From Bacteroidales bacterium (GTDB taxonomy: Bacteria > Bacteroidota > Bacteroidia > Bacteroidales > P3), in NCBI GenBank assembly GCA_017480785.1, contig JAFURZ010000005.1:16259-80258 (forward strand): DNA of 64,000 nucleotides, in the 5' to 3' direction. This document shows, in pieces, positions 6,244 through 56,481 of this stretch. Numbering within the stretch: the stretch's first letter is position 1; each line of letters opens with the position of its first letter. Position numbers and translations under genes: made by a program. The notes under the pieces are model-generated. The model was not told the DNA's origin, did not search any database, and saw only the letters and a list, made by a program, of their open reading frames with translations.

Positions 6244-6252
6244 ACCCCACAA

Positions 6253-6423
6253 GTCCCCGCAGGGGACGACACTTCTTAGCCGTGGGCGTAAGCCCACGGG
6301 AACGTGAGAAAAAAACATTATAGAGCCCCGTAGGGGCGACACATTGACAATCTGCCTAGTGCCGCCCCCACGGGGCTCGGTCACATCACTCTTCCTTCAA
6401 CCGTGGGCTTACGCCCACGGCTA
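6253..6423. repeat. Cluster of nested GC-rich REP-like hairpins
   Basis: tagccgtgggcgtaagcccacgg (6277-6299) is inverted at 6401-6423. gagccccgtaggggc (6323-6337) is inverted at 6361-6378. gtccccgcaggggac lies at 6253-6267. Confidence 0.8.
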
Positions 6424-6476
6424 AAACTTTTCGCCCTTAACAGGGCTCTGTTTGCATTATGAGACATCCTCTCTTA

Positions 6477-23242: not shown

Positions 23243-23339
23243 CCATTTTTACGGTAGTATTACGGTAGTATTACGGTAGTATTACGCTTTAAAAGCGTAA
23301 TACTACCGTAATACTACCGTAATACTACCGTAAAAATGG
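23243..23339. repeat. ~47-bp near-perfect palindrome with TACGGTAGTAT 11-nt x3 arms
   Basis: ccatttttacggtagtattacggtagtattacggtagtattacgcttt | aaaagcgtaatactaccgtaatactaccgtaatactaccgtaaaaatgg. Confidence 0.9.
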
Positions 23340-25628: not shown

Positions 25629-25654
25629 GCAGGCCCAAACAATTTAACTATACA

Positions 25655-25690
25655 GAAAGCACGCCCCGCGGGGCGTGCTTTCGCCGTTTC
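25655..25690 (+). terminator. Terminator-like hairpin after the EF-G paralog
   Basis: AAAGCACGCCCC/GGGGCGTGCTTT stem followed by TCGCCGTTTC. Near-identical arms occur after tsf (41373-41410). Confidence 0.6.
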
Positions 25691-25745
25691 TATATATATA
25701 TGTATCGCTCACAGGTGTGGCGCATTCACAGCTTTTTTTCACAAT

Positions 25746-25791
25746 CCCGCATCAATGCGAGACCGTTTTGCAGCACTTGCAATGCTCCCCG
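25746..25791 (-). repeat. 46-nt 3' element, copy downstream of the TM2 gene
   Basis: The reverse complement cggggagcattgcaagtgctgcaaaacggtctcgcattgatgcggg matches 56381-56426 at 40/46 positions. Confidence 0.8.
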
Positions 25792-25844
25792 AGCAAACCG
25801 CGGATAAAGATACACTGCTTGCTACATTAACGATTTGGTGACAG

Positions 25845-26282
25845 TTACCTGCTGTTCCATTTTGCCACGCGCTCTGCCCAGCCTTCGTCGTCATCGCAAA
25901 GCCAGACAATGCCTTCTATCAGTCCGATGATGGCTGGGACACCTGTCCAGCAAAAGAGGATGTCCAAAACACCACGCAGGGCTTGCCCTGTGTAGAAGTG
26001 CTGAACGCCAATATCTCCAAGGAGAATCGCAAGCAGGCCTGCTGTCAACTTGTCGGGGTTTTCGCTGAGTTCGAAAACTTCAGCAGACATATCGTTCTCT
26101 GTTGGGAACGATGCATCCTTCACTGCTTCGAAAGAAACAGAAGCAGGTTTTTCCTCGACCTGCTCGGTGAACATTTGGGGGTCGTTAGTGGTGGTGTTCT
26201 CGGGCTCGGCGAGCAATGACTGAGCTGATGCCGTGGCCATGCCCATCATGGCAGCAACGATTAGAGTAAGAACTCTTTTCAT
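25845..26282 (-). CDS. TM2 domain-containing membrane protein
   Basis: 145-aa ORF with a signal peptide and a C-terminal TM2 pattern (LLAILLGDIGVQHFYTGQALRGVLDILFCWTGVPAIIGLIEGI). Visibly less GC-biased than its flanks. Confidence 0.8.
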   Translation of the reverse strand: MKRVLTLIVAAMMGMATASAQSLLAEPENTTTNDPQMFTEQVEEKPASVSFEAVKDASFPTENDMSAEVFELSENPDKLTAGLLAILLGDIGVQHFYTGQALRGVLDILFCWTGVPAIIGLIEGIVWLCDDDEGWAERVAKWNSR

Positions 26283-26516
26283 AGGTGTGGTAATTTTATA
26301 AGGTTTTGTGCATTATTGCCATAAAAAAGGTACGGATGTTTCCGTCTGCCTTACAGGTTTACCACAACCTCCTTTCCCGACGGACACCGTACCATATAAA
26401 GCACGAATGCCCCAACGGGGAAGGATTATGGTGAAGCACTAATCGACTTCGAGGTGGTAATTTGTAAGGCAATTGAGTTCTTCTTGCCGTATGCATATCT
26501 CTCGCAAACGACGGTG

Positions 26517-26584
26517 CAAAAATACAAACTTTCTGCGACGTGACCAAATTTATTTTGCCATGTGGCTGAAATGTTGTATCTTTG
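26517..26584. promoter_or_regulatory. Back-to-back Bacteroides-type promoters (TM2 gene leftward, ribD rightward)
   Basis: Leftward TAttTTTG is the complement of 26517-26524; rightward TAtcTTTG is at 26577-26584. Central CAAA-tttat-TTTG supplies both -33 elements with 19-20 nt spacers. Confidence 0.65.
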
Positions 26585-26594
26585 CACCCTGAAA

Positions 26595-27677
26595 ATGACA
26601 CAGGAAGAGATAGACAAAAAGTATATGCGGCGCTGCCTGCAGCTGGCAGCCAACGGACTGGGTCGCGTGAGGCCCAACCCGTTGGTGGGGTGCGTGGTGG
26701 CGAGGCAAACGGAGAGTGGAGAGTGGAGAGTGGAGAGTGAAGGTTACCACCAATACTATGGCGGATGGCACGCCGAGCGCAACGCACTATTGCGTGCAAG
26801 CCAACTTTCAACTTTCAACTCTCAACTTTCAACTTTATATGTCAACCTCGAGCCCTGCTCGCACTACGGCCACACGCCACCCTGCGCCGACCTCATCATC
26901 GAGAAGGGCATCCGCCGGGTGGTCTGCTGCAACGACGACCCCAACCCCCTGGTGGCGGGGGGCGGCTTCCGCAAGCTGGAGGCCGCCGGCATCGAGGTGG
27001 TGCGTCACGTGCTCGAAGCGGAGGGCCGCGAACTGAACCGCCGCTTCTTCACCTTCATGGAGCAGCAGCGGCCCTACGTCATCCTCAAGTGGGCCGAGAG
27101 CAAGGACGGCTACATGGCGCCAAGCCCTAATTCTCAATCAGAACAAAAAGAAAATTCTGATAGTTCTTTTAGTTCTGATTGCAATAAAAAATACTGGCTC
27201 AGCACGCAGGAGCAGAACCGCCTGAACCACCGCTGGCGCACCGAGGAGGCCGCCATCCTCGTGGGCAGTGAGACCTTCCTGCGCGACCACCCCTCGCTCA
27301 CGGCACGCCACTACCTCGGTTCACAGCCGCAGCCCGTGGTGCTCGACCGCCGCGGACGCTTACTATCCCAATCAGAGGTTATTTCTCAATCAGGACTAAA
27401 AGAAAGTTCTGATAGTTCTTTTAGTTCTGATTGCAACAAAAGAGAATGGCTGGTTCTGCGGAGCCAGACCATCCCCGAGGTGCTGCATGCACTCTACGAG
27501 CACAAGCTGCAGAGCGTCATCGTCGAGGGCGGCCGCCAGATGCTGGACGCCTTCATCGAGAGCGGCCTCTACGACGAGGTGCGCATCCTCCGCAGCCTGC
27601 AGACCCTCGGCAGCGGCCTCAAGGCTCCCGCCATCCCGCCCATCGCCCCCAACCGCCTAATCATCATCGAGCCATGA
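26595..27677 (+). CDS. ribD: Bifunctional riboflavin biosynthesis deaminase/reductase RibD
   Basis: ORF 26562..27677 trimmed to ATG 26595, 10 nt after TAtcTTTG. Motifs RPNPLVGCVV, HAE, LEPCSHYGHTPPC and the reductase motif VIVEGGRQMLDAFIESGLYDEV. Confidence 0.9.
   Translation: MTQEEIDKKYMRRCLQLAANGLGRVRPNPLVGCVVARQTESGEWRVESEGYHQYYGGWHAERNALLRASQLSTFNSQLSTLYVNLEPCSHYGHTPPCADLIIEKGIRRVVCCNDDPNPLVAGGGFRKLEAAGIEVVRHVLEAEGRELNRRFFTFMEQQRPYVILKWAESKDGYMAPSPNSQSEQKENSDSSFSSDCNKKYWLSTQEQNRLNHRWRTEEAAILVGSETFLRDHPSLTARHYLGSQPQPVVLDRRGRLLSQSEVISQSGLKESSDSSFSSDCNKREWLVLRSQTIPEVLHALYEHKLQSVIVEGGRQMLDAFIESGLYDEVRILRSLQTLGSGLKAPAIPPIAPNRLIIIEP
26711..26738 (+). repeat. GGAGAGT x4 heptamer array inside ribD
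   Basis: Four perfect units read as ESGEWRVES. Confidence 0.9.
26803..26837 (+). repeat. AACTTTC x5 heptamer array inside ribD (imperfect inverse of 26711-26738)
   Basis: Units aactttc x2, aactctc, aactttc, aacttta. Read as QLSTFNSQLSTL. Confidence 0.9.
27127..27190 (+). repeat. In-frame palindromic element copy 1 inside ribD
   Basis: aatcagaacaaaaagaa...ttctgatagttcttttagttctgattgcaa. Reads PNSQSEQKENSDSSFSSDCNKK. Confidence 0.85.
27368..27445 (+). repeat. In-frame palindromic element copy 2 inside ribD
   Basis: caatcaggactaaaagaa...ttctgatagttcttttagttctgattgcaa (30 nt identical to copy 1). Reads SQSEVISQSGLKESSDSSFSSDCNKRE. Confidence 0.85.
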
Positions 27678-34130: not shown

Positions 34131-34134
34131 CACA

Positions 34135-34203
34135 GTGGATAGTGGGCAGTGGGTAGTGGGTAGCACACGTGGTCAGCAGCTACCCACTACCCACTACCCA
34201 CTA
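34135..34203. repeat. GTGGGTA x4 / TACCCAC x3 hairpin between the PorE-like stop and the miaA core
   Basis: gtgggtagtgggtagc (34149-34164) pairs perfectly with gctacccactacccac (34179-34194). Confidence 0.9.
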
Positions 34204-41372: not shown

Positions 41373-41410
41373 GAAAGCACGCCCCGCAACGGAGCGTGCT
41401 TTCGTCGTTA
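41373..41410 (+). terminator. Terminator-like hairpin after tsf
   Basis: GAAAGCACGC/GCGTGCTTTC stem followed by GTCGTT. Shares CAGAAAGCACGCCCCGC with 25653-25669. Confidence 0.6.
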
Positions 41411-41423
41411 ATATGCAATATCA

Positions 41424-41485
41424 CCGCGCATCATTGCAAAACCGTGTCGCAGCACTGAAAACTGACTTCGCATCGATGCGGAGGC
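41424..41485 (-). repeat. 3' element, diverged copy downstream of the lipoprotein gene
   Basis: The reverse complement ..cagtgctgcgacacggttttgcaatgatgcgcgg aligns with the 3' two-thirds of 56381-56426. Adjacent palindrome cgcatcgatgcg. Confidence 0.6.
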
Positions 41486-41523
41486 TCTGGTTGAACTAAA
41501 AAACGATCTTGCCTCAATTCTTA

Positions 41524-42308
41524 TTATTCAATCATTTCAACGGTTCTTCCAGACGAAAAGCACTCAAGTGTATTGGGTTCTCCTGTATTGAAATAACACG
41601 GAGATGCAGAAACCATCATGGTAAAAAAACCTATTTTCTTCACCTCACATCTCGTGATATAAAATTTGTTTCTAATCTTTTTCCATTGAGGATTGTCTAT
41701 ATTATTTGAAAAAGTAAGGATGTGTTCACACATAAGATCTTCTTTACTGTATACTCCTTTTTTTCTCTCTAGAGAGTACCTAGAGGGTCTTGTCATTCGG
41801 AAGAACTTGACGTTACTTCTTGAATGAGGAGGGATTCCAACAAAACGTTCTTCTGTGGTCTGAACAAACGTGCCTGATGTAGAAGTTTCCCCCATGTTTA
41901 CACCATTTGCTACGGTTTGAGTTATTGGTCCAGCGCCTACGGCTCTTGTCACCGCACCGGCATTCACATTCATACTCCTGCTTTGGATATTCGTTGTTGT
42001 GACGACAGCATTATTATATATTTTGATAGCGTTTCCATAATTAGTTCCAAGTTCGTTATGTGAAATAAAAAAGGATTCCCCCAGATCAATATATAACATG
42101 CTGTCCGTCTCATTATAAACAAACAATGAACCATCTACATCATATTCTAACCGAATACCTTCATCTGAAATGGAGACTTCCATTCGAGATTGGTTGTCAG
42201 GTTTACATTCAGAATTAACACAGCGAACAGTGTAGGTTAGTCGGTTTACCGGCACGCATGATGTAAAAAGTGTAATTGCTAGGGTAGCAACAAAAAAGTT
42301 TTTTTCAT
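41524..42308 (-). pseudogene. Hypothetical lipoprotein gene, start codon out of frame at an A7/T6 tract; phase-variation candidate (AT-rich islet)
   Basis: The body ORF 41524..42255 is listed from GTG. Upstream, ATG 42308 reads MKKTFLLLP-stop. One extra A (A8) or T (T7) would give MKK(N/T)FFVATLAITLFTSC VPVNRL..., a canonical lipoprotein signal fused to the body. GC content is far below the flanks. No domain recognised. Confidence 0.5.
42292..42305 (-). repeat. A7-C-T6 tract immediately after the ATG of the lipoprotein gene
   Basis: Minus strand reads atg aaaaaaa c tttttt g. A +1 change in either run restores the lipoprotein signal peptide frame. Confidence 0.85.
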
Positions 42309-42560
42309 ATTTTATACCCTAATACGTGCCGGGCGCAACTTTCAAGCTCTTCCGCACCCCGTTGAGCGATTATTAAAGAAGCGTGGTGCCGTCACACCAT
42401 TCTTACATGGAGGTCGTAGGAATTACCTTGAAAAGAGAAGATGCAATAAGCCCACGCTATATAGCGAAGACCATTACACAAATTCTGCTTTTCTCTGGAA
42501 GTTTCCTACGTTTCCATGTACAGAATAAGCGTAAACGCTTCGGTGATTTCCTCATGAAAT
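42309..42560 (-). promoter_or_regulatory. Conserved long 5' leader (copy 1) upstream of the frameshifted lipoprotein gene
   Basis: Aligns block by block with 55647-55880. Shared blocks include GATTTC-N5-GAAATC, CGAAGCGTT, TATAGCGTGG, CAAGGTA, ACCACGCTTCT and CGCTCAACGGGGT. Confidence 0.55.
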
Positions 42561-42566
42561 CGACTG

Positions 42567-42634
42567 CAAAAGTACAAACTTTCTACGACGTGGCCAAATT
42601 TATTTTGCCATGTGGCTGAATTGTCGTATCTTTG
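42567..42634. promoter_or_regulatory. Back-to-back promoters (lipoprotein gene leftward, Bro-N gene rightward)
   Basis: Leftward TActTTTG is the complement of 42567-42574; rightward TAtcTTTG is at 42627-42634. 67/72 identical to 26515-26586. Confidence 0.65.
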
Positions 42635-42657
42635 CAGTCGGAAAACACACATTCGGC

Positions 42658-43497
42658 ATGACGAAGAAGCAAGCAATACAATTCTTTGAGGAGAAGAAGG
42701 TGCGCACCGTGTGGGACGACGAGCAGGAGAAGTGGTATTTCTCCATCGTGGACACCGTGGCGGTGCTGACGGACAGCCCCAATCCGCACAATTATTGGAA
42801 AGTCTTGAAACATAGGCTCAAGAAAGAGGGCAACGAGTCGGTTACAAAATGTAACCAACTGAAATTAATATCGACCGACGGGAAAAGCTACAAGACTGAT
42901 GTCGCCGACACCGAGCAGCTTTTCCGCCTCATCCAGTCCATCCCCTCGCCCAAGGCGGAGCCTTTCAAGCAGTGGATGGCGCAGGTGGCGGCCGAGCGGC
43001 TGGACCAGATGCAGGACCCCGAGCTGGGCATCGAGCAGGCGCTGATGGACTACAAACGGCTGGGCTACTCCGACAACTGGATCAACCAGCGGCTGAAGTC
43101 CATCGAGATACGCAAGGACCTCACCGACGAGTGGAAGCGCCACGGCCTGAAGGAGGGCGTGCAGTTCGCCACGCTGACCGACATCATCTACCATACATGG
43201 TCGGGTATGACCGCCAAGGAGTACAAGCACTTCAAAGGCCTAAAGAAGGAGAATCTGCGCGACAACATGACGAATAGGGAACTCGTCCTCAACATGCTGG
43301 CCGAACTCTCCACCAAGGACATCTCCGAGGCGCGCAACCCCGAGACCTTCGGCGAGCACGCCGAGGTGGCCCGACAGGGCGGCGAGATTGCCGCTGGCGC
43401 CCGCCGTGAGCTTGAAGCCAAGACCGGCAAGCCAGTCGTCACCTCGCTCAACGCCAAGGACGTGTTGCAGATTGAAGACAAAGCCACCGAAAAGTAA
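42658..43497 (+). CDS. Bro-N domain protein (DinD/antirepressor-like C-terminal half)
   Basis: ORF 42610..43497 trimmed to ATG 42658. Bro-N-like FEEKKVRTVWDDEQEKWYFSIVDTVAVL. The C-terminal part resembles DNA-damage-inducible protein D-type proteins. Confidence 0.75.
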   Translation: MTKKQAIQFFEEKKVRTVWDDEQEKWYFSIVDTVAVLTDSPNPHNYWKVLKHRLKKEGNESVTKCNQLKLISTDGKSYKTDVADTEQLFRLIQSIPSPKAEPFKQWMAQVAAERLDQMQDPELGIEQALMDYKRLGYSDNWINQRLKSIEIRKDLTDEWKRHGLKEGVQFATLTDIIYHTWSGMTAKEYKHFKGLKKENLRDNMTNRELVLNMLAELSTKDISEARNPETFGEHAEVARQGGEIAAGARRELEAKTGKPVVTSLNAKDVLQIEDKATEK

Positions 43498-47146: not shown

Positions 47147-50100
47147 ATGGTTAGAAGAATCTACGTAGAGAAGAAATCCCCCTATGCCGTGAAGGCGAAG
47201 GAGCTCAAGACCGAAATGAGCGAATACCTCGGCATCGAAGCCGACGTGGTACGCGTGCTGGTGCGCTACGACGTGGAGAATGTCAGCGACGCCACCTTCC
47301 ACACCGCGCTGACCACCGTCTTCAGCGAGCCTCCGGTGGACGACGTGTACCTCGAAGAGTTTCCCCGCAAGGAGAACGACTTCTGCTTCACCGTGGAGTA
47401 CCTCCCCGGCCAGTTCGACCAACGGGCCGACAGCGCCGAGCAGTGCGTCTGCCTCCTCAACGACGCCGAGCACCCCATCATCAAGTCTGCCACCACCTAC
47501 GTCATCTCTGGAGTGGATAGCGGGAAGTGGAAAGAGGACAGCGACTGGCAATCGGCCATCATCGCCCACTGCGTCAATCCGGTCGACAGCCGCCGTGCCG
47601 ACGGTCCCAAACCAGACACCCTCGAGGACCACTTCGACGAGCCTGCCGACGTCATCACCTTCGACGGCTTCAAGGACATGCCCGAGCCGCAGCTGAAAAG
47701 CCTTTACGACGGCCTCGGACTGGCCATGACCTTCGCCGACTTCCTGCACATCCAGCGCTACTTCCACGACGAGGAGCACCGCGACCCCACGATGACCGAA
47801 ATCCGCGTCCTCGACACCTACTGGAGCGACCACTGCCGCCACACCACCTTCGCCACCGAGCTGAAGGACGTCCGCTTCGACGACGGCTTCTACCGCCCCC
47901 TCATCGAGGGCGCCTTCCGGCAGTACCTCGCCGACCACCGCGAGCAGTATGCCGGACGCACCGACAAGTACGTCTGCCTGATGGATATCGGCACCCTGGC
48001 GGCCAAACGGCTCAAGAAAGCCGGCTACCTCGACGACCAGGAGCCCAGCGACGAAATCAACGCCTGCTCCATCGTGGTGCCCGTCACCATCGACGGCAAC
48101 CGCGAGGAGTGGCTCATCAACTTCAAGAACGAGACCCACAACCACCCCACCGAGATTGAGCCCTTCGGCGGCGCGGCCACCTGCCTCGGCGGCTGCATCC
48201 GCGACCCGCTCAGCGGCCGCACCTACGTCTACCAGGCCATGCGCGTCACCGGCGCCGCCGACCCCACCAAGCCCCTCAGCGAGACCCTCCCCGGCAAGCT
48301 GCCCCAGCGCAAGATTGTCACCACCGCCGCCCGCGGCTACTCCAGCTACGGCAACCAGATAGGCCTCGCCACAGGGCTAGTCAACGAGATATACCATCCC
48401 AACTACGTAGCCAAGCGCCTGGAGATAGGCGCCGTCATCGCCGCCGCCCCGCGCCGTGCCGTGAAGCGCCTCACCTCCGACCCGGGCGACGTCATTATCC
48501 TGCTTGGTGGCCGCACCGGCCGCGACGGCATCGGCGGCGCCACGGGTGCCTCGAAGAGCCACACCAGCAAGTCGCTCACCACCTGCGGCGCCGAGGTGCA
48601 GAAGGGCAACGCCCCCACCGAACGCAAGATACAACGCCTCTTCCGCCGCGAAGAGGTCAGCAGCCTCATCAAGAAGTGCAACGACTTCGGCGCCGGCGGC
48701 GTCAGCGTGGCCATCGGCGAACTGGCCGACGGACTCCAAATCAACCTCGACCGCGTACCCAAGAAGTATGCCGGCCTCGACGGCACCGAACTCGCCATCA
48801 GCGAGAGCCAGGAGCGCATGGCCGTGGTGGTCGACCCCAAGGATGTGGACCAGATGCTGCGCTACGCCGACGAGGAGAACCTCGAAGCCACCGTCGTGGC
48901 CACCGTCACCGAGGAGCCCCGCATGGTCATCTCTTGGCGCGGCAAAGAGATAGTGAACCTCAGCCGCCGCTTCATCGACACCAACGGCGCCCACCAGGAA
49001 ACCACCGTGAAGGTGAAGATGCCCGAGAAAATTGAAAATGGAAAATTGAAAATTGAAAATTCGCTGCCGCACCCGGATAATTCTCAATTCTCAACTCTCA
49101 ATTCTCAATTGAAGGACCTTTGGTTCCAGACCCTCTCCGACCTCAACGTCTGCTCGCAGAAAGGCCTCGTCGAGATGTTCGACAGCTCCATCGGCGCCGG
49201 CAGCGTGGTGATGCCCTTCGGCGGCCGCTACCAGCTGACGCCCACGCAGTGCATGATAGGCAAGCTGCCCCTCCTGGACGGCAAGTGCGACACCGTGACC
49301 CTCATGTCCTACGGCATGGACCCCTACCAGACCTCGTGGAGTCCCTTCCACGGCGCCGCCTATGCCGTGCTCGGCAGCGTGGCCAAGATTGCCGCCGCCG
49401 GCGGCGACGTCAGCCGCGTGCGCCTCACCTTCCAAGAATACTTCAAGAAACTGGGCACCGACCCCTACCGCTGGGGCGAGCCCTTCACCGCCCTCCTCGG
49501 CGCCTACCACGCCCAGATGGGCCTCCACCTACCCGCCATCGGCGGCAAGGACTCCATGTCCGGCACCTTCAACGACATCGACGTGCCGCCCACCTTCTGC
49601 TCCTTCGCCGTCGGCGTCAGCGACCTGCAGCACGTCGTCACCCCCGAGCTGAAGAAAGCCGGCAACCGGCTGGTGCTGCTCGATGTCAAGGAGGACCAGT
49701 ACGGCATGCCCGACTATGCCGACGCCCTCAACCAGTACGCCGCCCTGCACCGCGCCGTCGAGGCCGGCCGGGTGTGCAGCGCCTATGCCCTCGGCATGGG
49801 CGGCATCGTCGAGGCCGTCAGCAAGATGGCCTTCGGCAACAAGCTGGGCGTCCGCATGGCCCCCGTGCCCGAGACATCAGCCTCGGGTCTCGCCGCCAAG
49901 CACTATGGCTGGCTTGTCGTCGAGGTAGCCGGCACAGAAGAGCTGCCCTTCCGCTGCACCGGGATTGGCGAGGTCACCGCCGAGCCCGTGTTCGAGGTGG
50001 CCGGCGAGAAGATAAGCCTCGACGAGGCCCTCGCCGCATGGCAGAAGACGCTCGAAGGCGTCTTCCCCACCCGTAGCACCCAGCAAGCGGAAAGTGGAAA

Positions 50101-50977
50101 GTGGAAAGTGGAAAGCGCTCTGTACAACACTCCGAAGGAGAAACTTTCAACTTTCAACTATCAACTTTCAAGTTCCGCGAAGCCGAGAGTCTTCATCCCC
50201 GCCTTCCCCGGCACCAACTGCGAGTACGACTCGGCCCGCGCCTTCAACCGCGCCGGTGCCGAGAGCGAAATCATCGTCTTCCGCAACCAGAACGGCCAGC
50301 AGATTCGCGAGAGCGTGGACGCCTATGTCGACGCCATCCGCCGCAGCCAGATTATCATGCTGCCCGGCGGCTTCAGTGCCGGCGACGAACCCGAAGGCAG
50401 TGCCAAATTCATCACCAGCGTCTTCCGCAACCCCAAGATTGCCGACGCCGTGATGGAGCTGCTCCAGAAGCGCGACGGCCTCATGCTGGGCATCTGCAAC
50501 GGCTTCCAGGCCTTGGTGAAGCTCGGCCTGGTGCCCTACGGCGAGATACGTCCGCAGGCCGCCGACGCCCCCACGCTGACCTTCAACACCATCGGCCGCC
50601 ACCAGAGCAAGATGGCCTACACCCGCGTCAGCTCCAACCTCAGCCCCTGGCTGCGCAAGGCCGAACTCGGCGCCACCTACGTCATTCCCATCTCGCACGG
50701 CGAGGGCCGCTTCGTGGCCCCGCAGGAATGGATTGACAGCCTCTTCCGGAACGGACAGGTGGCCACACAGTACTGCGACCTCGACGGCAACCCCACCATG
50801 GACGAGGAGTACAACATGAACGGCTCCTACTGCGCCATCGAAGGCATCACCAGCCCCGACGGACGCGTCTTCGGCAAGATGGGACACAGCGAACGCCGCA
50901 GCAAAGGCAGCGCCCTCAATATCTATGGCAACGACGACCAGCAGATATTCGAGAGCGGCGTACAGTACTTCAAGTAG
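47147..50977 (+). CDS. purL: Phosphoribosylformylglycinamidine synthase (single-chain)
   Basis: 1276-aa ORF with NHPTEIEPFGGAATCLGGCIRD, a repeated AIR-synthase-like core and a C-terminal glutaminase (GICNGFQAL, SHGEGR). Two in-frame heptamer hairpins. Confidence 0.97.
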   Translation: MVRRIYVEKKSPYAVKAKELKTEMSEYLGIEADVVRVLVRYDVENVSDATFHTALTTVFSEPPVDDVYLEEFPRKENDFCFTVEYLPGQFDQRADSAEQCVCLLNDAEHPIIKSATTYVISGVDSGKWKEDSDWQSAIIAHCVNPVDSRRADGPKPDTLEDHFDEPADVITFDGFKDMPEPQLKSLYDGLGLAMTFADFLHIQRYFHDEEHRDPTMTEIRVLDTYWSDHCRHTTFATELKDVRFDDGFYRPLIEGAFRQYLADHREQYAGRTDKYVCLMDIGTLAAKRLKKAGYLDDQEPSDEINACSIVVPVTIDGNREEWLINFKNETHNHPTEIEPFGGAATCLGGCIRDPLSGRTYVYQAMRVTGAADPTKPLSETLPGKLPQRKIVTTAARGYSSYGNQIGLATGLVNEIYHPNYVAKRLEIGAVIAAAPRRAVKRLTSDPGDVIILLGGRTGRDGIGGATGASKSHTSKSLTTCGAEVQKGNAPTERKIQRLFRREEVSSLIKKCNDFGAGGVSVAIGELADGLQINLDRVPKKYAGLDGTELAISESQERMAVVVDPKDVDQMLRYADEENLEATVVATVTEEPRMVISWRGKEIVNLSRRFIDTNGAHQETTVKVKMPEKIENGKLKIENSLPHPDNSQFSTLNSQLKDLWFQTLSDLNVCSQKGLVEMFDSSIGAGSVVMPFGGRYQLTPTQCMIGKLPLLDGKCDTVTLMSYGMDPYQTSWSPFHGAAYAVLGSVAKIAAAGGDVSRVRLTFQEYFKKLGTDPYRWGEPFTALLGAYHAQMGLHLPAIGGKDSMSGTFNDIDVPPTFCSFAVGVSDLQHVVTPELKKAGNRLVLLDVKEDQYGMPDYADALNQYAALHRAVEAGRVCSAYALGMGGIVEAVSKMAFGNKLGVRMAPVPETSASGLAAKHYGWLVVEVAGTEELPFRCTGIGEVTAEPVFEVAGEKISLDEALAAWQKTLEGVFPTRSTQQAESGKWKVESALYNTPKEKLSTFNYQLSSSAKPRVFIPAFPGTNCEYDSARAFNRAGAESEIIVFRNQNGQQIRESVDAYVDAIRRSQIIMLPGGFSAGDEPEGSAKFITSVFRNPKIADAVMELLQKRDGLMLGICNGFQALVKLGLVPYGEIRPQAADAPTLTFNTIGRHQSKMAYTRVSSNLSPWLRKAELGATYVIPISHGEGRFVAPQEWIDSLFRNGQVATQYCDLDGNPTMDEEYNMNGSYCAIEGITSPDGRVFGKMGHSERRSKGSALNIYGNDDQQIFESGVQYFK
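49027..49110 (+). repeat. GAAAATT x5 / AATTCTC x4 inverted heptamer arrays inside purL
   Basis: Left arm 49027-49061, right arm 49079-49110. Reads KIENGKLKIENSLPHPDNSQFSTLNSQL. Confidence 0.9.
50089..50171 (+). repeat. GGAAAGT x4 / AACTTTC x4 inverted heptamer arrays inside purL
   Basis: Left arm 50089-50116, right arm 50142-50171. Reads ESGKWKVESALYNTPKEKLSTFNYQL. Confidence 0.9.
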
Positions 50978-54981: not shown

Positions 54982-55049
54982 CAAAATTACACATTTTCGG
55001 GCAATTGGCAAAATATATTTTGCAGAATGGAATAAATGTAGTACTTTTG
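54982..55049. promoter_or_regulatory. Back-to-back promoters (pepD leftward, 55074 gene rightward)
   Basis: Leftward TAatTTTG is the complement of 54982-54989; rightward TActTTTG is at 55042-55049. Central CAAA-atatat-TTTG with 19-nt spacers. Confidence 0.65.
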
Positions 55050-55073
55050 CACACACTTTCAAACAATAAAACC

Positions 55074-55481
55074 ATGGACATTCCGCAAGGAAACACGAAA
55101 GAAGAGCTCAAGCAGCGCGAGGAGATAATCTCGCAGGTGTACCGCCGCTGGACGGAGGAAAACCCCGACAAGCGCGTCTACAACCGCTCGCTAAAGGACT
55201 ACATCAACATCCGCTACCTCTCTATCACCGAGACGATGCGTCACGCCGCCAAAACCTACGCATCCACGCTGGCGATGCTGCAACTGGACACCATTTTGCG
55301 CTACTCCGTCAAATTCGGTAAGCCTAAACCGCCCAAGAAAGGGGTGAAAAACCAGGAAATCTTCACATTGATGCAGGAGATGCATTGCGAGCTGGTAGGC
55401 ATCGGGACCGTGAAGATGATGGTCGGGATCAAACGCTCGGGAGAGAAGATACAGTATTGTATCACAGCCATTACGGCATAA
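55074..55481 (+). CDS. Hypothetical protein
   Basis: ORF 55005..55481 trimmed to ATG 55074, after TActTTTG at 55042-55049. 135 aa with no domain recognised. Confidence 0.5.
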   Translation: MDIPQGNTKEELKQREEIISQVYRRWTEENPDKRVYNRSLKDYINIRYLSITETMRHAAKTYASTLAMLQLDTILRYSVKFGKPKPPKKGVKNQEIFTLMQEMHCELVGIGTVKMMVGIKRSGEKIQYCITAITA

Positions 55482-55572: not shown

Positions 55573-55641
55573 CAAAAGTACAACTTTTTTTCGGACTGAC
55601 AAAATTTATTTTTGCCAGTCCGATTTATTTATGTATTTTTG
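55573..55641. promoter_or_regulatory. Promoter module upstream of the small OMP gene; its leftward half has no target gene
   Basis: Leftward TActTTTG is the complement of 55573-55580; rightward TAttTTTG is at 55634-55641 with TTTG at 55611-55614 (19-nt spacer). Confidence 0.6.
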
Positions 55642-55646
55642 CAGCC

Positions 55647-55880
55647 GATTTCGGAAGGAAATCTTCGAAGCGTTATATCTTCGTCTTGCGATTGGGAATG
55701 TGAGAAGTTCATCGATAAGCGAGATAGGTATGATGGTTCGCGTGTATAGCGTGGACTTTATATCACATCTGCTTATCAAGGTATTCTCACAACCTCCAAT
55801 CGAAGAAGTGGTGTACGGTACCACGCTTCTGTTTTAACCGCTCAACGGGGTACGGGAGAGCACGAAAAAAACTAATAATA
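55647..55880 (+). promoter_or_regulatory. Conserved long 5' leader (copy 2) upstream of the small OMP gene
   Basis: Same blocks in the same order as 42309-42560 (minus). 5'-terminal hairpin GATTTC(55647-52)/GAAATC(55658-63). Confidence 0.55.
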
Positions 55881-56351
55881 ATGAAAAGATTAACGGTAAT
55901 TGCAGTGCTCATTCTTTTTTTAGCTTCAATGCAAGCAAACGCACAAACCACAGATGACCAACAAAAGATGGATTACACGAGAGGTAGTGGCTTTGTAATT
56001 CGTCCTGAATTAAACAATGGTCTACTTGCTACATTAGGTTACCAAATTAACCCTTATGTAATGTTAGAAGGGAGCCTTGGTTTTGATTTGTCGGGCTCTG
56101 CAGCCATGACTACGGTTATCGGTGTCAGGGCATACACTTCTAGCAAGCCTTGGGCCGCTTTTTTTGATTATCGTGTTGGCGCAGAAAGCGTCTCGGGATA
56201 TAGCATAACTAGACATACGATTGTTGCAGGTGCAGCATATAAAGACTTTGATTTTGGAGCCGGTGTAATATTCGGCACTGATGGGACGACAAGTGTCACA
56301 GGTCTATCCATCTCAATTGGATATAATATTCGCTGCTACAAGCACCGATAA
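55881..56351 (+). CDS. Small exported beta-barrel-like protein (AT-rich islet)
   Basis: 156-aa ORF with signal peptide MKRLTVIAVLILFLASMQANAQ and a short barrel-like pattern ending GLSISIGYNIRCYKHR. Markedly AT-richer than its flanks. Confidence 0.6.
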   Translation: MKRLTVIAVLILFLASMQANAQTTDDQQKMDYTRGSGFVIRPELNNGLLATLGYQINPYVMLEGSLGFDLSGSAAMTTVIGVRAYTSSKPWAAFFDYRVGAESVSGYSITRHTIVAGAAYKDFDFGAGVIFGTDGTTSVTGLSISIGYNIRCYKHR

Positions 56352-56380
56352 CAGTCCGTTTAACGCCATCTGTAAATGTG

Positions 56381-56426
56381 CGGGAAGCATTGCAAGTGCT
56401 GCGAAACAGTCGCGCATTGATGCGCT
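56381..56426 (+). repeat. 46-nt 3' element, copy downstream of the small OMP gene
   Basis: cgggaagcattgcaagtgctgcgaaacagtcgcgcattgatgcgct. Contains the near-palindrome agcattgcaagtgct and the palindrome gcgcattgatgcgc. Confidence 0.8.
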
Positions 56427-56481
56427 GCGATTTTTCGCGGTTGCTCGAAAGGGTGCTGATGTTGTCGAGAGGACGGGGGCT

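Follow-up and report, generated by a model that had tools for sequence, protein, structure and literature searches.

A 46-nt intergenic element is the head module of a low-copy, genus-restricted repeat array that follows accessory genes in Bacteroidales

REP/BIME elements of enterobacteria are transcribed imperfect palindromes that lie at gene 3′ ends and between cistrons; they stabilise the upstream mRNA against 3′ exonucleases and are bound by gyrase and IHF. REP units alternate in orientation, occur in hundreds of copies and have a RAYT transposase as partner. The BOX element of Streptococcus pneumoniae is built as boxA-(boxB)n-boxC and is present in more than 100 copies per genome; we know of no report that it keeps a strict 3′-UTR polarity. 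The closest described elements to the one analysed here are BrickBuilt, with 23-nt units, and MITEPgRS (= MITE464), with 41-nt units, both from Porphyromonas gingivalis (PMC4596501, PMC2575886).

The window, a 64,000-nt stretch of a Bacteroidales draft genome (2.25 Mb, 19 contigs, 57.5% GC), carries three copies of the element, A, B and C, whose coordinates are collected in Table 1. The initial annotation had described a 46-mer with a reverse-complement copy, and such a pair is present: the heads of A and B agree at 40 of 46 positions, where chance would give no such match. A degenerate 39-mer that spans both copies hits these two sites alone in the window and none in 100 shuffles. BLAST of the 2.25-Mb assembly returned A and B as the sole close pair (91% over 44 nt). 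The ORF maps agree with the claimed spacing from the stop codon, which is 29 nt for A, 53 nt for B and 67 nt for C, and with the claim that all three copies have the same polarity relative to their own gene. Each copy lies in a convergent spacer, the gene on the opposite side being yidD for the OMP-like gene, an EF-G-like gene for the TM2 gene and tsf for the 243-aa ORF. The three upstream genes are, as had been noted, AT-richer than the window (60% GC).

Table 1. Positions of the array modules, their upstream genes and the associated hairpins in the window.
Feature	Position	Strand	Evidence or remark
Upstream gene of A, 156 aa, signal peptide, weak OMP beta-barrel match, 42% GC	55881–56351	+	
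Composite copy A, decayed array	56357–56472	+	BLAST to G027 and G017 arrays; head alignment; nhmmer hit C14:72627–72685
Copy A stop-proximal hairpin remnant	56364–56383	+	part of composite A
Copy A head (= 46-mer)	56381–56426	+	followed by a degenerate second unit with a 15-nt insertion
Copy A P1 hairpin GCGCATTGATGCGC, then TGCGATTTTT	56412–56425	+	terminator-like in copy A only
Upstream gene of B, 145-aa TM2-domain protein, 52% GC	25845–26282	−	
Composite copy B: head (25746–25791) and one degenerate unit	about 25700–25808	−	BLAST, alignment
Copy B terminal GC-rich hairpin, bidirectional terminator in common with the EF-G-like gene	25653–25685		terminator scan
Upstream gene of C, 243-aa ORF, no Pfam match, 38% GC	41524–42255	−	
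Composite copy C: two units and tail module (GATATTGCAT), no head	41404–41506	−	G027 match; nhmmer and CM hits
14-bp terminal hairpin with T-rich tail, directly 3′ of the copy C tail	41373–41403	−	terminator scan

The 46-nt limits are too narrow, since homology covers about 56357–56472 in A and about 25700–25800 in B. What had been described as a discrete 46-nt unit is one module of a 100–300-nt array of ~42-nt units, and the 46-mer is shown to be the head of a genus-restricted, low-copy, non-coding modular repeat. The anatomy was read from copies in four genomes of the same genus, using a 76-nt query. A full copy (e.g. that of G027) is ~250–300 nt long and contains, in this order, a stop-proximal hairpin, the head, the units, a tail and a GC-rich hairpin with a U-rich tail. 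The stop-proximal hairpin, which forms one end of full copies, lies 8–50 nt 3′ of the stop codon of the upstream gene; the other end is a GATATTGCA tail. Up to five more ~42-nt units follow the head; every unit comprises a GCA-N4-TGC hairpin, lengthened by pyrimidine/purine pairs, as well as a T-tract and a CAGTGCTG core. In G027, the gene of a 176-aa lipoprotein is followed by CCTCCGCATATATGCGG, the 46-mer homologue and a run of units with the consensus CTCCGCATTGATGCGAGGTCGTTTTTCAGTGCTGCAAATGCGTTTT, and the array ends with the tail ...GCAATGATGCGAGGCGATATTGCAT, the GC-rich hairpin and TGTTGTT. The period found by Tandem Repeats Finder is 42 nt, with a sub-period of 21 nt; of the 67 units whose length was measured, 48 have 42 nt, 18 have 41 nt and one has 40 nt. 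The alignment of nine heads has 36 invariant columns, the head being the best-conserved part of the array, and the homology continues beyond the 46-mer on both sides in A, B and all the relatives. Copy B is orthologous to longer arrays 3′ of the TM2 gene in G013 and G126, so that the same locus holds ~2 hairpins in our genome, four in G013 and six in G126. Such differences in array length would reflect the gain and loss of units and the exchange between arrays.

The alignments show that the window copies are shortened, A and B consisting of the head and a decayed unit and C of the last units and the tail. C had been regarded as a diverged copy of the head; instead, window positions 41375–41506 correspond to positions 148–279 of the G027 array with 83% identity, a segment made up of the last units together with tail and terminal hairpin. 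The two small hairpins assigned to the 46-mer do exist, but only B folds better than its shuffles (z −3.5). For the short copies A and C, the fold does not exceed that of shuffles, and these two may for this reason be decaying remnants.

The hairpin CAGAAAGCACGCCCCGC...GCGTGCTTTCG is indeed common to loci B and C and has no other site in the genome. It had been attributed to neighbouring housekeeping terminators; because it is found only at B and C and continues the homology to the G027 tail, we assign it on sequence grounds to the composite itself, as its terminal module. At locus C this hairpin has a terminator score in the direction of the small gene, and at locus B in that of the EF-G-like gene; the hairpin of locus C is predicted to terminate the lipoprotein gene and, on the opposite strand, tsf. 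Termination is predicted at the terminal hairpin in general, with the exception of copy A, where the P1 hairpin precedes a T-run. A U-tract after a hairpin occurs only at these two places, P1 of copy A and the separate terminal hairpin of the composite. The heads in the relatives have no U-tract and are followed by GGGATGATGAAAC, which argues that the 46-mer, as a family, is not an intrinsic terminator.

These observations bear on the initial proposal of a self-contained 46-nt structured element that is itself a terminator, a processing site or an sRNA. Such an element would fit the strong conservation of the head with its 36 invariant columns, as well as the terminator-like score of the second hairpin and T-run of copy A. 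However, the flanking homology on either side in all relatives, the relatives' heads that lack a U-tract and are predicted to pair with later units, and the failure to match any Rfam family make it very unlikely.

Using a unit profile, five clear loci were identified in the genome (A, B, C, C8:102631–102873 and C4:249830–250011), together with two weak loci on C19 and C13. The idea of a plain high-copy REP family was rejected with this count of five clear and two weak loci in a 2.25-Mb draft and a single polarity relative to the upstream gene, which agrees with the initial annotation. Within the genus, 49 of 121 genomes contain the family when the full G027 array is used as the query, with 1–6 loci each; these counts are minima, and several arrays of the relatives lie at contig ends. 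For the rest of the order, a unit covariance model applied to an even draw of 300 genomes from 209 genera gave a single marginal hit, and the family therefore appears to be confined to one genus of uncultured rumen Bacteroidales. A contig scan with a degenerate 19-mer returned mostly chance matches in unrelated phyla, while double matches 42 nt apart were found in 'Bacteroidales bacterium' MAGs from rumen and gut (RUG, UBA). A metagenome contig scan with a 25-nt head pattern yielded only two contigs, both with the lipoprotein-array-asnS locus. No Rfam family matches the three window loci, and a search up to E 10 with locus A and one full array gave chance-level matches only. Searches of the literature on DUF6261 and on Bacteroidales minisatellites turned up nothing on this 42-nt repeat family.

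Other structured repeats are present elsewhere in the window. Two gathering-level matches to Rfam Acido-Lenti-1 (RF01687) lie at 6252–6299 (−) and 6401–6447 (+), as an inverted pair of CCGTGGGC..GCCCACGG hairpins ~100 nt apart in this Bacteroidales genome. Inverted pairs of short tandem 7- or 11-mers, which form hairpins of repeats, are located at 23249–23333, 34134–34203, 49027–49110, 50085–50171 and 26711–26836, and some of them are inside genes (ribD, purL).

The placement described for the window copies, at the 3′ ends of single AT-rich accessory genes and with a polarity fixed relative to the upstream gene, holds for the family. In at least 28 of 31 loci, a co-directional CDS ends no more than ~100 nt upstream of the array. 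The upstream genes belong to 14 unrelated families: OMP-like, TM2, two different lipoproteins, a 93-aa membrane protein, ORF6N, T5orf172, DUF6261, DUF1846-like, porin-like, putative T9SS C-terminal-domain proteins and three others. The clearest exception is a deletion derivative in G006, whose array abuts a Bro-N gene fragment. The convergent setting is found at all three window loci, but it is not general, as arrays of the relatives also lie between co-directional genes. Three classes of context can be distinguished. Class 1, which includes A–C, the asnS loci and the cobW loci, has head and units in a convergent spacer 3′ of a small AT-rich gene for an exported protein. Class 2, found in many relatives, has the order DUF6261 3′ end, array, intrinsic terminator, TTTGTTT and lipoprotein ATG, with the ATG of variable MKK... 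lipoprotein genes at a constant 82–88 nt from the array. Class 3 (C4 and C8 of our genome) resembles class 2 minus the terminator. In every class, a stop codon precedes the array, and the next terminator or gene comes only after it.

Additional features were observed around these loci. The class-2 terminator hairpin (L038–L049, about 1690–1780 in array orientation) shows by eye some compensating stem changes between loci. The ~30 nt between this terminator and the lipoprotein ATG seemingly leave no room for a separate promoter, which suggests that the class-2 lipoprotein genes are expressed by read-through (attenuation). At C4:249683–250706 of our genome (G000), a class-3 array and the gene of a 212-aa lipoprotein come after a short remnant of the DUF6261 3′ end (…DGDEPAQDDTIPAE*); this array was apparently duplicated along with the end of the DUF6261 gene. 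Each of the three small genes upstream of A, B and C is preceded by the same two-way promoter module (55585–55700, +; 42400–42640, −; 26380–26620, −), of the form GCAAAGATACG...CAGCCACATGGCAAAAT...TGTATCTTTGCA with two divergent TAnnTTTG boxes, and this module also stands before unrelated cassette genes in G027, G122 and G017. Its 3′ side is occupied, at the OMP and lipoprotein genes, by a common leader (CCGATTTC..AAGGAAATC..). An LPD3-domain ORF (55005–55481, +) lies just upstream of the OMP cassette, a Bro-N gene (42610–43497, +) adjoins the lipoprotein cassette, and the order Bro-N, cassette, array recurs beside asnS in G017.

The array next to asnS is orthologous in four species, while the gene before it differs (TM2, the 93-aa membrane protein, a lipoprotein, or none). 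Arrays in this slot are 86–95% identical between species, compared with 65–79% at the four-fold-type third positions of asnS. Across species, the units keep the sequence typical of their position, and within one array they agree with each other at only ~72%; judged from these sequences, rapid homogenisation as in a VNTR does not take place in the array. One lipoprotein cassette of 1041 nt, from promoter and leader to the array tail, is found at two sites, next to cobW in G027 and next to asnS in G122, with 83.6% identity. It has no visible duplications and no inverted ends. This transfer of a whole gene cassette is the only relocation seen, and no target-site duplications were observed. The metagenome array L191 is a mosaic, with a near-identical lipoprotein gene and inner units like those of G027; exchange between arrays thus takes place, and it may contribute to the high identity between species. 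Recombination could therefore lie behind that identity, and the polarity could be inherited if the array is copied together with its gene.

A neutral or selfish origin would account for a part of these observations. In that case, the array would be a minisatellite or MITE-like remnant that spreads with the neighbouring DNA and inherits its polarity and position from it, with no function of its own. The class-2 copies that carry a 3′-end fragment of the DUF6261 gene, the single cassette found beside both cobW and asnS, the decay in A and B, the deletion derivative in G006, the mosaic array and the restriction to one lineage, as for BrickBuilt (PMC4596501), are all compatible with such a view. 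It is nevertheless hard to reconcile with orthologous arrays that are more conserved than the synonymous sites of the adjacent essential gene asnS, with units that keep their position-specific sequences instead of being homogenised, with the lack of terminal inverted repeats and of any IS with matching ends in the genome, and with only 5–7 loci per genome. We consider a purely neutral repeat unlikely.

The exchange of genes at constant arrays also raises the possibility, which we regard as a rather doubtful one, that the array and the promoter/leader module constitute exchangeable expression cassettes for accessory envelope proteins, with the array as both a recombination arm and a regulatory 3′ UTR or read-through leader. 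Fixed slots such as Bro-N/slot/asnS would keep the 3′ array while the gene before it is swapped between strains and species, and the array could serve as a read-through leader for a following lipoprotein gene, as an alternative to a regulatory 3′ UTR. If true, this would be an integrase-independent cassette system in rumen Bacteroidales.

Several signals in the array point to RNA. The GCA-N4-TGC hairpin core is invariant with a free loop. Pyrimidine-purine pairs lengthen the stem to 7 bp, and in this 7-bp hairpin 89.8% of cells pair, compared with 25–55% in slid controls. Many of the stem pairs are U·G, which are A·C mismatches on the other strand (68 vs 9 and 59 vs 1, with the third position reversed). 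In 27 of 31 arrays, folding as RNA is more stable for the sense than for the antisense strand (mean z −4.1 vs −2.9), although this z difference is modest and a G+T-rich sense strand favours sense folding by composition alone. The full G027 element folds with −131 kcal/mol (z −6.2) into a predicted long imperfect rod, in which the head pairs with later units, and the consensus fold of seven heads is a ~64-nt hairpin centred on CGCATTGATGCG. Compensatory base changes were found in none of 26 Alifold pairs, and the covariation score is not above that of shuffles, as conservation is too high or variation is confined to one side. As compensatory changes are absent, the case for an RNA structure draws on conservation and thermodynamics, by which it is supported but not proven.

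A coding function of the head was rejected. A small peptide (…GSIASAAK[R/Q]SRIDAG), produced for instance by a frameshift from the upstream gene, was considered since A and B share an open frame in which three of the four differences are synonymous. Over nine loci, however, the variable sites are spread over the codon positions as 7/6/6, the head of G013 has an in-frame stop, no start codon is present and, read by hand, the frame is not in the same register with the upstream gene at all loci. We give this candidate practically no credence.

The same repeats could act on DNA, and the 42/21-bp period together with the perfect palindromes keeps a DNA-binding model alive. The phased palindromic cores would then bind a dimeric or nucleoid protein, or the array would be a recombination hot spot or homology arm. 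A 41–42-bp period corresponds to ~four helical turns, with the 21-bp sub-period within it; cores such as CGCATCGATGCG and CCGCATATATGCGG are perfect palindromes; the asnS slot keeps its array while the upstream gene varies (TM2, 93-aa membrane protein, lipoprotein); and mosaic arrays exist. Against a platform of this type, approximately half of the extended stem pairs are T·G, which are mismatches in the symmetry of a duplex or cruciform, and a symmetric binding site would not need a strict polarity. Moreover, the shared 5′ leaders, with an identity of only ~72%, are poor substrates for homologous exchange, and the genome has only two tyrosine recombinases, located on other contigs (C1, C12). 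A DNA-level role appears quite unlikely on these grounds.

We slightly favour the view that the array is a structured 3′-UTR repeat module of accessory envelope-protein genes with a role at the RNA level. No terminator lies between the stop codon and the array and one follows it, so that, to judge from the anatomy, the accessory gene before it, and no other gene, would carry the array in its transcript as a 3′ UTR. A sigma-70 promoter scan of the three spacers returned none, and no Bacteroidetes −7 box (TAnnTTTG) was seen by eye inside the arrays. The array would most likely act in the RNA as a stack of stable hairpins, which could slow 3′-to-5′ decay or serve as a platform for processing or protein docking, and in this way would set the expression of AT-rich envelope-protein genes. 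The mechanism would most probably lie in the stability or processing of the mRNA.

Uncultured rumen Bacteroidales are abundant, and to our knowledge almost nothing is known of their gene regulation. The array family provides a defined, conserved non-coding module that accompanies variable surface-protein genes at their 3′ ends. Should the array stabilise or process mRNA, Bacteroidales would have a counterpart to the function of REP or BOX, and expression design would gain a useful part; should it mark slots for gene swaps, it would explain the turnover of accessory envelope genes. For annotation, the shared 'terminators' and small ORFs in these spacers should be treated as parts of one repeat.

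Compared by their descriptions, the family is best read as a new one of a known kind of repeat, similar in kind to BOX, REP/BIME and BrickBuilt/MITEPgRS. Like BrickBuilt/MITEPgRS, it belongs to Bacteroidales, is strictly intergenic and consists of tandem direct repeats between a distinct leader and tail, with long predicted stem-loops that often lie beside terminators, a restriction to a species or genus and no Rfam match (PMC4596501, PMC2575886). Internal direct repeats (23 or 41 nt) in variable copy number between distinct flanking segments are a feature by which MITEPgRS and BrickBuilt are recognised, and the array family shows it with a period of 41–42 nt and a distinct head and tail. In both cases, the unit number varies, between strains in BrickBuilt/MITEPgRS, and leader or tail is often partly deleted (PMC4596501, PMC2575886). 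Both ends of MITEPgRS/BrickBuilt carry 12-nt IS5-type terminal inverted repeats (GAGACnnTTGCA ... TGCAAnnGTCTC), which the array family lacks, as it lacks visible target-site duplications, the other feature that defines these MITEs; the TIR-like string GAGACCGTTTTGCA is found solely within the head and in inward orientation. A MITE with IS5-type ends was rejected as a candidate, as the genome has no such IS and only four loose matches, one of them in an array. The family has 5–7 loci as opposed to the 10–20 of BrickBuilt/MITEPgRS, and its strict polarity 3′ of a gene has no equivalent rule in Table 1 of the BrickBuilt study (PMC4596501). BrickBuilt has bidirectional promoter activity, whereas the array family has no visible −7 box (TAnnTTTG).

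The array also resembles an integron attC site, which is an imperfect palindrome placed in one orientation 3′ of single, AT-rich, variable accessory genes. Unlike integron cassettes, those of the array family each come with a promoter and leader of their own and occur one at a time at scattered sites. An integron-like site was rejected, given that the two Phage_integrase genes of the genome (C1, C12) are not near the arrays on C14, C4 and C8. With BOX, the family shares the modular head-(unit)n-tail plan, a tandem unit of ~45 nt in BOX, a stable predicted RNA structure and a definition that requires neither a transposase nor terminal repeats, and BOX is co-transcribed with neighbouring genes; BOX differs in its unrelated sequence and its occurrence in another phylum. 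REP differs in its arrangement, as the array units are mostly direct and few. The array nevertheless resembles REP/BIME in its position between stop codon and terminator and, probably, in its role.
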